This document shows positions 5,579 to 9,827 of a stretch of DNA of 64,000 nucleotides, one piece after another. This DNA comes from a phage, in assembly GCA_024875585.1 (NCBI GenBank), contig GCA_024875585.1_4107.1. The stretch is one strand, 5' to 3'. Below the pieces are notes generated by a model, which searched no databases, was not told the origin of the DNA, and saw nothing but the letters and a program-made list of their open reading frames with translations. Made by a program: the position numbers and the translations under genes. The number at the start of each line of letters is the position of its first letter. Position 1 is the first letter of the stretch.

Positions 5579-5848
5579 ATGTACGCATTGTATAATAAAG
5601 AAAAGAAACAATTTGCTAAGGTTGAAATTTCGATTGATACATTTGATATGTTGGAGTACTGTATTGTAACGGACCCATGTGCTAACTTGTATTACGTTCA
5701 TGATGACGTATCAGTACTGCAACGATTGCTTGAGAGTTCAAAAAGTCAATGTCAGGGAATCCATGATGGTTCATCCTATGAAACTCCTGAGTGTTCATAT
5801 GGCTGTCTGGATGGATATGAGATTGTTAAGTTAGGGATCGTTGAATAA
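5579..5848 (+). CDS. hypothetical protein (89 aa)
   Basis: ATG after SD GGAG (track start 5561 is TTG); followed by terminator. Confidence 0.5.
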   Translation: MYALYNKEKKQFAKVEISIDTFDMLEYCIVTDPCANLYYVHDDVSVLQRLLESSKSQCQGIHDGSSYETPECSYGCLDGYEIVKLGIVE

Positions 5849-5854
5849 AGAAAA

Positions 5855-5880
5855 GGGTTGACTTTAGTCAGCCCTTTTTT
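5855..5880 (+). terminator. rho-independent terminator (GGGTTGAC-UUUA-GTCAGCCC + T6)
   Basis: 8 bp stem, T-tract; contains TTGACT. Confidence 0.65.
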
Positions 5881-5887
5881 CTATAAT
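5858..5887 (+). promoter_or_regulatory. candidate promoter TTGACT-N18-TATAAT embedded in terminator
   Basis: -35 inside hairpin, perfect TATAAT at 5882..5887. Confidence 0.45.
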
Positions 5888-5915
5888 CATTTCATCGGAA
5901 CGGAAGGATGTTGAA

Positions 5916-6398
5916 ATGAACTATTTAGATTTAATTAATACGTATGTCATCAGCCCATATCTTAACGATGAAAGTATCAAATGTGTAGTATCTGTTGATA
6001 ATCATCCAAATGGTGCATTAGAACTATTCGGTGCAGGACAGATTAACAATCGTTGTGGGTATACTTTTGAGTACTTACCAGAAAGAGATGTATTTGGTTG
6101 TTATGACCACAAAATCAAAAAAGGTGCTATATGGGGTAATCACAAAGATATTGCACAATCTTCACTTTTCGAAGATCATAATGGATATATGTGGCGTTCT
6201 CTTGGTGCAGTCCTACTTGATATCGCCCGTAGATATAAAAAGCGTATAACTCTTACTTATACACATACAGTTGAATATAAAAATGAAGTACAAGTAGAAG
6301 ATGAAGAATTTTTTAAAAGTATCCCGTACATTGAATTCAACTTCCAAAACGGGTATGCTATATATCCTGATGATTTTATTGGTGAAAAATATTTTTAA
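5916..6398 (+). CDS. hypothetical protein (160 aa)
   Basis: SD GGAAGGATG; ORF after terminator/promoter cassette. Confidence 0.65.
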   Translation: MNYLDLINTYVISPYLNDESIKCVVSVDNHPNGALELFGAGQINNRCGYTFEYLPERDVFGCYDHKIKKGAIWGNHKDIAQSSLFEDHNGYMWRSLGAVLLDIARRYKKRITLTYTHTVEYKNEVQVEDEEFFKSIPYIEFNFQNGYAIYPDDFIGEKYF

Positions 6399-6405
6399 AA
6401 AATAT

Positions 6406-6433
6406 TTGAAAAGAAAAGAATAAGTGCTATAAT
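6406..6433 (+). promoter_or_regulatory. candidate promoter TTGAAA-N16-TATAAT
   Basis: hexamers upstream of 6490 gene. Confidence 0.4.
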
Positions 6434-6489: not shown

Positions 6490-6900
6490 ATGATTAACAA
6501 ACATTTCGCAGTTTCTAAAACAGTAACCATCGATAACGAATGGGAAATTACTATTCTTAATGATCCTGCTCGTGGGTTGCTTGCAGAGAATCTTGTACAG
6601 AAATACATCGACTGTAAGTCTGAATTGATTATTCACGACCGTACCAAATTTCTTCTCATCAATGGCAAGAAGTGTAAAGTATTAGTATTCACGGATAAAA
6701 TGAGCCGTGCAGACATTATCACCAAATTGGTAAGTTCTTCACGTCACCGCCCAGGAGTTAACAAATCTATCGAAGAAGTTAAAGATATGAAGCCTGGTGA
6801 TTTATTCATTATTGCGGGTTTTGATTCTAAAACAAGAGAAATGTACATTTCAGAAATGTACACTAATGCTGAAATGCGTAACAAATTCTTCTCTAACTAA
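6490..6900 (+). CDS. hypothetical protein (136 aa)
   Basis: SD AGGAGA before ATG. Confidence 0.65.
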   Translation: MINKHFAVSKTVTIDNEWEITILNDPARGLLAENLVQKYIDCKSELIIHDRTKFLLINGKKCKVLVFTDKMSRADIITKLVSSSRHRPGVNKSIEEVKDMKPGDLFIIAGFDSKTREMYISEMYTNAEMRNKFFSN

Positions 6901-6931: not shown

Positions 6932-8149
6932 ATGGATAAAAATATGATCTTCGAAACAGAAAAAACTTTACTTGAAACTTATACTTTAGAAAATCTTGTA
7001 CAACTTAATCTGGCCCGTCCTGATATTCAACGAAACTGGCAATGGAAAAGTAATAATCAAAATAATCTTATAATTTCTATTCTAAAGAATTCACCAATTG
7101 GACAATTTTTGGTATGGAATGAAACTTCTTCAAATACAATGTACATTACTGATGGACGCCATCGTTATACTGTAATTTCAAACTTCATTAATAATAAGTT
7201 CCCAGTAACAGTTAAAACCGAAAGTGGAACCAAAGATTATTATTATGGTTCTGACGATCCAATCGAAGAAGAAAACATTTCACTAAAACTTGGTGGTAAA
7301 AGTAAGACTTGGAATTTCTTATCAAAAGAAGAGCGTAATGCTTTTCGCAATAAAGAAGTATCAGTAACATTTGTTCATACAGATGATGCTGAGAAGATTT
7401 CTGAAATGTTTATGGCTATCAACACTGCTTCATCTAATTTGTGTAAAGTAGACTTGCTGGTATGCAAGCACCACAAAAATGCATACATGAAACGTATTGA
7501 TAAACTATTTTCAATTGAGATTGAAAAAGATGACCAAATGGCAGTTCTAGTTAGCGATTTCTATCGTGCAATCGGACACTGTAATGTCAACGGTAATTAC
7601 GAGAAACATTTAGCTAAACTTAAAGCTAACCCAAAAGTTCAGAAGCGTGAATTTTTTGAGATGTATTTTATGGTACGAGCCTTCACCAAATTGTGTCGTG
7701 ATGCTTTAAACGATACATTGAATTCATATCGTATGCCTAAGATGAATAAACAAATTGAAGATGCTATTATTAGTACTGAATCACTGAGTGAACAGCAAGC
7801 TAACGCCGATTTTGTTCAGTTCGTGAATGCAGTTCGTGAGATGAACCTTGTATCTCCAATAAAAGATTTACAAAAGTTTCAATTCATCCACGAAGATATG
7901 AAGAATACCTTTAACAAGCGTCTTTTTTGTATCTTAATGGGATTATATTATGCTTACGGTACACGTTTACCATTGCATTTTCGTGATGTTTGGTGTGCCA
8001 TTTATAATGAAATGTCAGAAAAAAGTACTGAACTACCAACAAACGGGACTGATAGTTCTTCTGCTATTGTAGCTGGTATCCAATTGATTGAACCGTACTT
8101 TAGTTCAGCCTTTAATAATATTTCATTGAGTGCTCGCGTGGGAAAGTGA
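6932..8149 (+). CDS. DUF262 / ParB-like nuclease-domain protein (GmrSD N-terminal-like)
   Basis: motifs RPDIQRNWQW, SPIGQFLVW, ITDGRHRY (DGQQR-type); start uncertain (first ATG after upstream stop; track start 6797 overlaps previous gene). Confidence 0.6.
   Translation: MDKNMIFETEKTLLETYTLENLVQLNLARPDIQRNWQWKSNNQNNLIISILKNSPIGQFLVWNETSSNTMYITDGRHRYTVISNFINNKFPVTVKTESGTKDYYYGSDDPIEEENISLKLGGKSKTWNFLSKEERNAFRNKEVSVTFVHTDDAEKISEMFMAINTASSNLCKVDLLVCKHHKNAYMKRIDKLFSIEIEKDDQMAVLVSDFYRAIGHCNVNGNYEKHLAKLKANPKVQKREFFEMYFMVRAFTKLCRDALNDTLNSYRMPKMNKQIEDAIISTESLSEQQANADFVQFVNAVREMNLVSPIKDLQKFQFIHEDMKNTFNKRLFCILMGLYYAYGTRLPLHFRDVWCAIYNEMSEKSTELPTNGTDSSSAIVAGIQLIEPYFSSAFNNISLSARVGK
8140..8146 (+). other. 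candidate -1 ribosomal frameshift heptamer G_GGA_AAG
   Basis: X_XXY_YYZ pattern one codon before DUF262 stop; -1 slip enters HNH frame. Confidence 0.3.
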
Positions 8150-8358
8150 AAAATCGTGGAATACTAAATATTTCACAAAAACAATATATTTTGAAAAAAT
8201 ATCCCGTTTGTTATCTTTGTAAACAATTTATATTAGATACAGATAAACCACACTTTGATCATGTACAGTCATTGAAAAATGGTGGTAGTAATGACCTAGA
8301 AAATATTAGACCAACGCACCCCATTTGTAATTTACGCAAAGGTGCTAAAAGTATGTAG
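8146..8358 (+). CDS. HNH endonuclease motif ORF (70 aa, no ATG start)
   Basis: CYLC...HFDHV...GGSNDLEN...HPICN; GTG at 8146 overlaps upstream TGA. Confidence 0.5.
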   Translation: MKNRGILNISQKQYILKKYPVCYLCKQFILDTDKPHFDHVQSLKNGGSNDLENIRPTHPICNLRKGAKSM

Positions 8359-8407
8359 AATAAAGACTCCCATTGACTGGGAGTCTTGTTATATTAAAAG
8401 GATTTAT

Positions 8408-9244
8408 ATGAGTATTAAAAATAAATTAGATCAGTATTATACAAAACCAGAGTATGCTGTAGATTGTTATACTAAATCATTAGAATTAATTTCTGAACGT
8501 ATGGATATTAGTTCATCGTATTTTATGGAACCATGTGTCGGTACTGGTTCATTTTATCTACAATTTCCTGAAGAACGTCGTTTTGGTTGTGATATCGAAC
8601 CAGTACATCTTGATGAAAATGTTATACATTCTGATTTTTTGCTTGAGTTCGGGATTAATGCAAGAAGTAAAGGTGAGCCAATAATTGTTATAAGTAATCC
8701 ACCATTTGGTAAGATTTCTTCTTTGGCTATCAAATTCTTTAATAAATGTGCATCTATGCCTGAAGTGAAATATATTTGTTTTATTGTACCTAAGACATTC
8801 CGTAAAGTTGCAACACAGAATAAACTAAACGAGATGTTCCATCTTGTTCTTGATGAAGATTCACCACATGATGCTTTTATTCTGCATGGCGAACCGCATC
8901 ATGTACCATGTGTATTTCAGATATGGGAGCGTAGAGATGAAGTTCGTGAACAACACGAAATTAAAAATAAATCAAACTACTTCCAGTTTTGTACTAAGGA
9001 TGAAGCGGATATTTACATTAAGCGTGTAGGAACTAAAGCTGGTGAGTATGCTGCACCTGGTAAAGAACACAAAGATGCAAGTATGTACTACATTAAAACT
9101 GATTATGTTGATGAAATTATTAGAATTTTGCAAAGTGAAGACTACATTGACGAGATTAAACGTATACGCAAAACCACCGCTGGTGTATTCTGTGTATCTA
9201 AATCTGAACTTGTACTGAACATTGAAAAACGTTTGAATTTTTAA
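8408..9244 (+). CDS. N6-adenine DNA methyltransferase (gamma-type motif order)
   Basis: DQYYTKPEYA (motif X), EPCVGTGSF (motif I), ISNPPFG (motif IV); SD AAAGGATT; track start 8342 is GTG. Confidence 0.65.
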   Translation: MSIKNKLDQYYTKPEYAVDCYTKSLELISERMDISSSYFMEPCVGTGSFYLQFPEERRFGCDIEPVHLDENVIHSDFLLEFGINARSKGEPIIVISNPPFGKISSLAIKFFNKCASMPEVKYICFIVPKTFRKVATQNKLNEMFHLVLDEDSPHDAFILHGEPHHVPCVFQIWERRDEVREQHEIKNKSNYFQFCTKDEADIYIKRVGTKAGEYAAPGKEHKDASMYYIKTDYVDEIIRILQSEDYIDEIKRIRKTTAGVFCVSKSELVLNIEKRLNF

Positions 9245-9250
9245 AATACA

Positions 9251-9275
9251 GGGTTGACTTAGGTCAGCCCTTTTT
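9251..9275 (+). terminator. rho-independent terminator (GGGTTGAC-UUAG-GTCAGCCC + T5)
   Basis: hairpin + T-tract after MTase stop. Confidence 0.65.
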
Positions 9276-9283
9276 GCTAAAAT
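9254..9283 (+). promoter_or_regulatory. candidate promoter TTGACT-N18-TAAAAT embedded in terminator
   Basis: same cassette architecture as 5858..5887. Confidence 0.4.
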
Positions 9284-9311
9284 TCTTTCATCGAAACGTG
9301 AGGATGAATAC

Positions 9312-9827
9312 ATGACACGCATTAACTTAGTACACGTTAAAGAACTTGCAGACCAACATCTGATGGCTGAATATCGTGAACTACCACGTGTATTTGGTGC
9401 TGTACAAAAACACGTTCAAGCATGTAAGCGTGTACGTGATTTCAAAATTAACAGTACTTATCTGTTAGGTTCAGGTCATGTGACATTCTTTTACGACAAG
9501 TTGCTGTACTTACAGAAGCGTCATATCGATATTGTCAACGAATGTTTGCGTCGTGGTATGAAGATTCAAAATACTGAAGTAAACGACATTAGCAGCTTCC
9601 CTGCTGAGTTTTGTAATGACTATGTACCATCGGAGTCAGAGATTGAAATGTCTCGTAAGCGTTTGATTGAGAAGCTTCAGATGAAGCCTACGTGGTATAA
9701 GTTTACTGATGTTGAATGTCCACAGTACGTTACAGATATGCTGAACGTAAGTAGTAAGTTCGAATATAGTACGGCTATGTTAGACGAAATTGAAGAACAA
9801 ATCAAAGATGAAATGAATAATTATTAA
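9312..9827 (+). CDS. denV: pyrimidine-dimer DNA glycosylase / endonuclease V (T4 DenV homologue)
   Basis: N-terminus [31 protein letters not shown] nearly matches T4 DenV as I recall it; [14 protein letters not shown]. Confidence 0.85.

Follow-up and report, generated by a model that had tools for sequence, protein, structure and literature searches.

Introduction

In insertion sequences (IS) of the IS3 family, frameshifting adds a catalytic domain to a DNA-binding N-terminal protein, giving OrfAB beside OrfA; the unshifted product is non-catalytic and can modulate activity. Here we describe a phage gene in which a nuclease domain appears to be attached to a sensor-like protein by similar means. 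The gene lies in a stretch of 64,000 nucleotides (nt), hereafter the window (contig GCA_024875585.1_4107.1 of NCBI GenBank assembly GCA_024875585.1), from an Asteriusvirus-like jumbo coliphage (121Q/PBECO4 group). The piece under study (positions 6,932..9,244) contains an open reading frame (ORF) for a ParB-like DUF262 protein, an overlapping ORF for an HNH nuclease domain in the -1 frame and a gene for an N6-adenine-type DNA methyltransferase (MTase). Judging from sequence comparison, we put at about 0.8 the probability that two products are made from the DUF262/HNH gene through conserved programmed -1 ribosomal frameshifting.

The IS3 OrfA/OrfAB pair is the closest logical analogue of the sensor-only and sensor-nuclease products proposed here. 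It differs, as do the tau and gamma products of dnaX, in its heptamer (A_AAA_AAG), in its enzyme class and in having well-defined stimulators, a Shine-Dalgarno (SD)-like element and a hairpin or pseudoknot, which are not conserved in the present family. The heptamer of the window, G_GGA_AAG, is identical to the lambda G/GT slip site, which likewise encodes Gly-Lys in both frames and from one start yields a short protein as the major product beside a minor form with a C-terminal extension (PMC3296357, PMC5009743). Ribosomes keep the 0 frame about 96% of the time at the lambda site, and modification of tRNA-Lys(UUU) tunes the slip rate (PMC3296357); the Atkins review describes the heptamer as 'highly shift-prone' in E. 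coli (PMC5009743). Lambda G/GT, a tail-assembly chaperone from an unrelated family, serves virion assembly, whereas the gene considered here encodes a nuclease and its stop codon usually abuts the heptamer.

At the protein level, the Type IV restriction enzymes GmrSD and BrxU resemble the predicted fusion: their N-terminal DUF262 ParB-like NTPase bears QRxxxW and DGxQR-type motifs and is followed by an extended helical part and, at the C-terminus, by a His-Me-finger nuclease (PMC4619093). The window gene departs from them in carrying a PF01844 HNH domain, joined via the proposed frameshift, and in being phage-encoded beside an MTase gene and a small co-evolving ORF. The 0-frame product on its own has the 'sensor only' architecture of Menshen NsnA, ParB-DUF262 followed by ParBDB (PMC12065111), but genes for the NsnB ABC-ATPase and the NsnC effector are missing: the neighbours are orf136 and an MTase_II gene, and the effector would be supplied in cis by recoding. 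Single-ORF DUF262-HNH relatives also exist (P0117; weaker matches P0011, P0018, P0033, P0040, P0041, P0099 and P0114; and the profile phrog_29172). In P0117 and phrog_29172, a single polypeptide carries both Pfam domains, arranged as in the proposed fusion; they differ in being distant, with similarity limited to the N-terminal ~100-200 residues, and in needing no frameshift.

A slippery heptamer at the junction of two reading frames

The DUF262 ORF of the window ends in GTG GGA AAG TGA, so that AAG is the last sense codon and touches the stop. A preliminary description of this DNA had singled out a G_GGA_AAG heptamer here and suggested that a -1 slip on it would yield a DUF262-HNH fusion. We found the heptamer to be in the X_XXY_YYZ register, directly abutting the stop codon (table 1). 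As also described, the HNH ORF lies in the -1 frame and begins, without an ATG, at GTG 8146, which overlaps the DUF262 stop (GTGA). The -1 frame of the window is open only from 8119. GGGAAAG occurs six times on both strands of the window (4.0 expected), and only the copy at 8140 joins a long upstream 0-frame ORF and an adjacent stop to a long -1 continuation; a chance origin of this arrangement is unlikely.

Relatives of the gene were then compared. Four close clusters came out of word-index searches, and the proteins in each had 'DUF262-only' length. When 1.84 billion representative proteins were scanned exhaustively by HMMER with the 0-frame protein as query, the full-length homologs fell into no more than five clusters at 50% identity. 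These were 74, 34, 30, 25 and 23% identical to the query and 388-421 amino acids (aa) long, and all had a Gly-Lys C-terminus; the scan indicates that the homolog family is nearly fully sampled. We retrieved the encoding DNA for all the clusters and added GAP32_518, a gene of Cronobacter phage GAP32, as a further relative. This gave nine loci: the window, Escherichia phage ph0011, L002-4, L005-6, L007, L008, L009-10, L011 and GAP32, with ph0011 and GAP32 representing cultured phages.

In all nine loci an in-frame G_GGA_AAG is closely followed by a 0-frame stop, and the -1 frame contains an HNH ORF of ~70-80 codons; five deep lineages of 22-34% identity share this arrangement. Together, the heptamer, the Gly-Lys that it encodes, the stop and the start-less HNH ORF, present in 9/9 loci, support the suggested slip. 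The stop directly followed the heptamer in seven loci (window, ph0011, L007, L008, L009/10, L011 and GAP32) and was delayed by one codon in L002 and by six in L005. Upstream of the heptamer, the -1 frame is open over no more than 1-9 codons (a single codon in L005 and L009), so that the heptamer is essentially the sole place where the frame could change. The probability of finding the exact xxG GGA AAG, given Gly-Lys and local codon usage, was 0.002-0.03 per lineage, and the product over the four deep lineages other than the query was 1.4e-9. A lysine- and arginine-rich linker starts directly after the slip site, and the conceptual fusion proteins align colinearly through the junction, along ~465-490 residues.

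Two further observations came from these comparisons. L005 (6197-6224) and likewise L006 have another in-frame heptamer, G_GGA_AAC, which directly adjoins the displaced stop and leads to the same -1 frame. This heptamer could serve as a reserve slip site and may have arisen by a local duplication, GCGTGGGAAA(G/C). Scanning IMG/VR with a single fusion protein gave no match, while a scan with the fusion alignment returned 39 loci that we rejected, as they matched by the generic HNH motif alone and were unrelated HNH genes without the heptamer/DUF262 layout.

Table 1. Features of the window around the DUF262/HNH gene, in order of position.
Feature	Position	Strand	Remarks
Left 74-nt repeat	5846..5919	+	Stem-loop, sigma-70-like promoter TTGACT-18-TATAAT, SD, ATG; left edge of insertion
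orf160	5916..6398	+	First gene of insertion; among related loci only in ph0011
Sigma-70-like promoter TTGAAA-16-TATAAT with TG	6406..6433	+	Upstream of orf136 and nuclease gene; 11/12 matches (promoter scan)
orf136	6490..6900	+	Small protein; co-occurs and co-diverges with DUF262/HNH gene
0-frame ORF: ParB-DUF262 and helical (ParBDB/GmrSD-M-like) domain	6944..8149	+	401 aa, C-terminus ...VGK; alternative upstream ATG 6932
Slippery heptamer G_GGA_AAG (X_XXY_YYZ register)	8140..8146	+	Proposed tandem -1 tRNA slippage site; Gly-Lys in both frames
-1-frame extension, 70 codons: basic linker (VKNRGILN...), then HNH domain (CxxC...DH...GG...N...HxxCN)	8146..8358	+	
0-frame stop TGA	8147..8149	+	Abuts heptamer
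Hairpin (GTGGAATA/TATTTCAC)	8156..8176	+	9 nt after heptamer; -6.3 kcal/mol, z -2.7
Terminator-like hairpin, weak T tract	8363..8387	+	Between HNH and MTase
N6-adenine-type DNA MTase, motif I EPCVGTGSF then motif IV NPPF	8408..9244	+	PADLOC MTase_II 1.3e-34; phrog_5172 3e-88
Right 74-nt repeat	9242..9315	+	Stem-loop, promoter, SD, denV ATG; right edge of insertion
denV	9312..9827		Pyr_excise 9e-15

The predicted sensor and nuclease domains

The HNH ORF matched PF01844 (E=2.3e-10) and also PF14279 (HNH_5) in Pfam; DUF1524 (PF07510) was not matched by the -1 extension at E<=0.1. In the PDB, the extension matched the HNH protein 4h9d (2e-5), and its matches comprised stand-alone and Cas9-type HNH domains. 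Residues C423, C426, D439, H440, N454, H459, C462 and N463, which make up the full catalytic and zinc set, were invariant in eight sequences, and substitutions were biased to the third codon position (e.g. 11/5/32). This pattern indicates that the HNH domain is under purifying selection, with a complete predicted active site. The HNH ORF is nevertheless unannotated in the ph0011 and GAP32 deposits and was uncalled in every metagenome contig examined.

The preliminary description had also assigned the upstream ORF, taken from 6932, to the DUF262/ParB-like proteins. The assignment was confirmed by Pfam (GmrSD_N/PF03235, E=1.1e-17; 65 bits, cutoff 33), while the start is probably ATG 6944, since every relative begins with MIFE... 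at this point and ATG 6932 (MDKN) is specific to the window. An SD-pairing check found no good SD at either ATG. Among the full-length homologs, Q29, R30 and W34, D70 and R74, and F81, N83 and N84 were invariant; they fit the motifs QRxxxW, DGxHR/DGxQR and F-x-N-N as defined for DUF262 (PMC12065111). A confident AlphaFold2 (AF2) model, again of the 0-frame protein alone (predicted local distance difference test score, pLDDT, 82), showed an α/β ParB-like domain followed by a helical domain. Its best PDB match in Foldseek was BrxU (7p9k), a GmrSD-family enzyme, with a probability of 0.98, followed by ParB N-domains. The best PADLOC profile was that of the Menshen sensor NsnA (2e-12, residues 29-338), a match that takes in the DUF262 part as well as the helical DNA-binding region.

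The label 'GmrSD-like' given to the gene at the outset therefore holds for the domain order and for the fold, with BrxU as best structural match, but not for the nuclease. The HNH domain and DUF1524 belong to different families of the same His-Me superfamily, and because DUF1524 is the defining nuclease of GmrSD, we did not file the module as a GmrSD member.

A proposed model of programmed frameshifting

We propose the following model. Most ribosomes would translate the 0-frame ORF and stop at TGA, releasing a 401-aa ParB-type DUF262 NTPase/sensor with a helical DNA-binding domain. A minority would slip one base back at the heptamer, the P-site tRNA-Gly re-pairing from GGA to GGG and the A-site tRNA-Lys from AAG to AAA; tandem slippage is proposed because G_GGA_AAG is the lambda G/GT site and highly shift-prone in E. 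coli. The shifted ribosomes would append the basic linker and the HNH domain, giving a fusion of ~471 aa in the order sensor, helical region, His-Me nuclease. We expect a slip of low percentage, as at the identical lambda site, with a rate that is probably raised by the adjacent stop, which may act as a 'shifty stop' stimulator, and in some lineages by a downstream hairpin. The two products would co-assemble, so that the frameshift would set the dosage of nuclease. The anatomy of the junction and its conservation are directly visible in the nine loci; from them we infer that ribosomes slip there.

Significant hairpins were found 4-9 nt downstream of the heptamer in four of the nine loci (window, ph0011, L008 and L011). 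The hairpin of the window is retained in ph0011 through compensatory changes (-10.2 kcal/mol, z -3.7) and may be a lineage-specific stimulator. L008 (5172-5217) has an unrelated hairpin 7 nt after the heptamer (-14.7 kcal/mol, z -4.8) and L011 (1366-1396) another unrelated one 4 nt after it (-12.9 kcal/mol, z -3.5). If stimulatory, these evolved independently.

Several points weigh against programmed frameshifting. No significant hairpin was found in the other five loci (L002, L005, L007, L009 and GAP32); a shared downstream RNA structure was considered and rejected, as the consensus fold reached only -1 kcal/mol and the hairpins are lineage-specific; and inspection revealed no conserved SD-like stimulator upstream. 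The family consists of about five clusters at 50% identity, which limits the number of independent observations. Coupled re-initiation is formally possible at two loci, the window and ph0011, where a GTG overlaps the stop. Finally, what is suggested for the module's function, including its target DNA, its connection with the MTase and the part played by orf136, is read from domain homology and gene neighbourhood.

Alternative explanations

Other ways of joining or separating the two reading frames fit the nine loci less well. A frame change in the mRNA through slippage of RNA polymerase is very unlikely. Productive transcriptional slippage normally needs long homopolymer runs, typically ~7-9 nt or more, and none is conserved here: an A-rich stretch does follow the site in some loci (e.g. 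GTGAAAAAT in the window), but this downstream A run is not conserved (GCCCTAAAG in L002, GTAAGAACC in L007), and within the conserved element itself neither the G nor the A run exceeds three bases. We give even less credit to the split being a frameshift mutation or assembly error in a formerly fused DUF262-HNH gene that now decays as a pseudogene. Although single-ORF DUF262-HNH proteins exist in other subfamilies, and a survey of GmrSD noted that adjacent split genes may be sequencing errors (PMC4619093), nine independently assembled loci from different studies have the same -1 layout at the same site, and the scan of 1.84 billion representative proteins brought up no in-frame, uninterrupted member of this family. 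The retention of all catalytic residues and the third-position bias of HNH substitutions speak against decay as well. The anatomy conserved in nine loci, taken with this coding constraint, rules out assembly error and pseudogenisation, and it makes independent initiation of the HNH domain untenable as a general mechanism. In this last scenario, which we consider improbable, two separate proteins would be made, the HNH domain initiating, or re-initiating after termination, at the GTG overlapping the stop and binding the DUF262 protein non-covalently in the manner of GmrS and GmrD. A two-gene form of GmrSD has indeed been described from some genomes (PMC4619093), and GTG 8146 overlaps TGA in the window and in ph0011. 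However, the first -1 codon is GCC (L002 and L005) or GTA (the other five) in the remaining 7/9 loci, no start codon of the HNH ORF is conserved across the nine, and L008 and L011 contain no ATG, GTG or TTG between the heptamer and the first zinc-binding Cys of CxxC. Candidate HNH starts also lack SD pairing (-3.4 kcal/mol at best; 4/5 neighbouring gene starts tested reached -5.6 to -7.0). Separate initiation would leave unexplained both the synonymous fixation of xxG GGA AAG in every lineage and the protein-level conservation of the linker upstream of the first possible start. On this comparison of start codons and SD pairing, we rejected it as the general mechanism.

The biological role of the gene leaves more room for disagreement. 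By analogy with BrxU, GmrSD, SspE and NsnA, the DUF262 and helical parts may form a nucleoside triphosphate (NTP)-dependent DNA sensor, with HNH as the effector. Together with orf136, and usually with an adjacent N6A-type MTase, the DUF262/HNH gene would then make up a restriction-like weapon, carried by the phage and aimed at the DNA of hosts or rival phages. Its targets would be either unmethylated host or rival DNA (restriction-modification-like logic) or modified DNA of competitor phages (Type IV logic). A surplus of nuclease-less subunits set by the frameshift could limit toxicity or build mixed oligomers, as with OrfA and OrfAB in IS3. The complete picture, in which frameshifting fixes the ratio of sensor to fusion in a co-assembling, dosage-limited weapon of jumbo and T4-like phages, carried with orf136 and the N6-methyladenine (m6A) methyltransferase on a mobile cassette bounded by promoter/stem-loops, is a tentative one, to which we give slightly less than even odds. 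Because the cassette is mobile, a homing-type role is a real alternative, if an unlikely one: the nuclease would be a selfish homing-type endonuclease cassette, and the MTase an unrelated anti-restriction gene adjoining it by chance. Such a role would suit a 3.4-kb accessory insertion that is bounded by 74-nt promoter/stem-loop repeats and present in 2 of ~40 Asteriusviruses, as well as the genes annotated as HNH or homing endonucleases in nearby slots of relatives. The MTase, moreover, is ~70% identical between lineages whose nucleases are ~24% identical, and none is recognisable near the L007 nuclease. On the other hand, the DUF262 and helical architecture matches NTP-dependent sensor nucleases (BrxU, NsnA) and not known homing enzymes, the MTase is adjacent in 3/5 deep lineages, and its start in GAP32 overlaps the HNH stop (ATATGA).

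Novelty and implications

Both -1 programmed ribosomal frameshifting at this heptamer and the domain families are already known; their combination, which would attach a nuclease effector to a phage ParB-DUF262 sensor, appears new. Full-text literature searches, supplemented by term queries within the PRFect paper and the Atkins review, turned up no report of frameshifting in DUF262, GmrSD or HNH genes. If confirmed, the gene would bring a new family to the few in bacteria and phages that are known for conserved -1 frameshifting, most of which are tail chaperones, dnaX and IS transposases. It would also, to our knowledge, be the first case of a restriction- or defence-type nuclease gaining its effector domain through ribosomal frameshifting. 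As the lambda heptamer is well studied, the recoding can be tested directly in E. coli.

Frameshifting at this site would represent a new way of regulating a potentially toxic nuclease, through the translational stoichiometry of sensor-only and sensor-nuclease subunits, and other 'split' sensor/effector pairs in defence systems would perhaps prove to be recoded, not broken. Since the HNH part escaped annotation or gene calling in all the genomes examined, similar recoded effectors may be systematically overlooked. The findings point to a phage-encoded GmrSD-like module with a possible role in phage-phage or phage-host conflict.

The methyltransferase and orf136

Downstream of the HNH ORF, an N6-adenine methyltransferase had been recognised in the preliminary description, and its NPPF motif and PADLOC match bear this out. 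Pfam returned no match for it, and a PDB sequence search was also empty. The promoter of its own that had been ascribed to it was not recovered: the stretch from HNH to MTase, when scanned for promoters, showed no sigma-70-like site, and the terminator-like hairpin was the only element seen there. The MTase and nuclease genes are neighbours in the window group and in L008, L010 and GAP32. No recognisable MTase lies near the L007 nuclease, the L011 neighbourhood ends at the contig end, and neighbouring genes of L007, L008 and L011 had no Pfam match.

The window MTase is ~70-72% identical to those of L010 (1999-2832) and GAP32 (L051 4358-5191), while in the same lineages the DUF262-HNH protein is only ~24% and orf136 ~20% identical. 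This contrast points either to very rapid evolution of the nuclease pair or to an exchange of diverged alleles beside a conserved MTase. As the MTase is far better conserved than the nuclease and not recognisable near L007, orf136 and the nuclease look like the co-evolving core, and a link of the MTase to the nuclease is plausible but unproven. We searched PADLOC with orf136 and found no family; a restriction-endonuclease-like fold, weakly supported, may be present.

In GAP32 (L051 4128-4360), GAP32_518, the DUF262 gene, ends in the same heptamer followed by TAG, and the HNH ORF occupies a 220-nt 'intergenic' gap. Its stop overlaps the ATG of the MTase gene GAP32_519, which suggests that translation of the MTase is coupled to that of the frameshifted product.

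The insertion and its flanks

The whole region is common only to the window and Escherichia phage ph0011, at 84% nucleotide identity. The module formed by orf160, orf136, the DUF262/HNH gene and the MTase gene is an accessory insertion, missing from 121Q, UE-S1, SP27 and ~35 other Asteriusviruses. In 121Q and other Asteriusviruses, the left flank runs straight into denV, which had been correctly placed just downstream of the MTase, and homology to these phages restarts at ~9243-9250 of the window. Profile searches with orf160 gave no Pfam or PHROG family. The element at 6406-6433, before orf136, is on sequence grounds strongly promoter-like.

A repeat search found that the two direct repeats flanking the insertion (table 1) are 78% identical. 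Both carry a TTGACT -35 box embedded in the stem-loop region as well as a -10 box. In T4-type phages, promoter/stem-loop cassettes are implicated in modular shuffling; the repeats of the window are similar, and the pair looks like a site of promoter/stem-loop-mediated cassette exchange.

The surroundings of denV form a variable slot with many nuclease genes. A 137-aa gene, annotated in JP4 as 'HNH endonuclease', is carried by ph0011 (L001 3034-3447) and JP4 (L052 3100-3513) immediately upstream of the repeat or denV. The window appears to be without this gene, since the ph0011 match is ~400 nt longer than the query. In JP4, a 'homing endonuclease' gene lies 1.6 kb downstream of denV.

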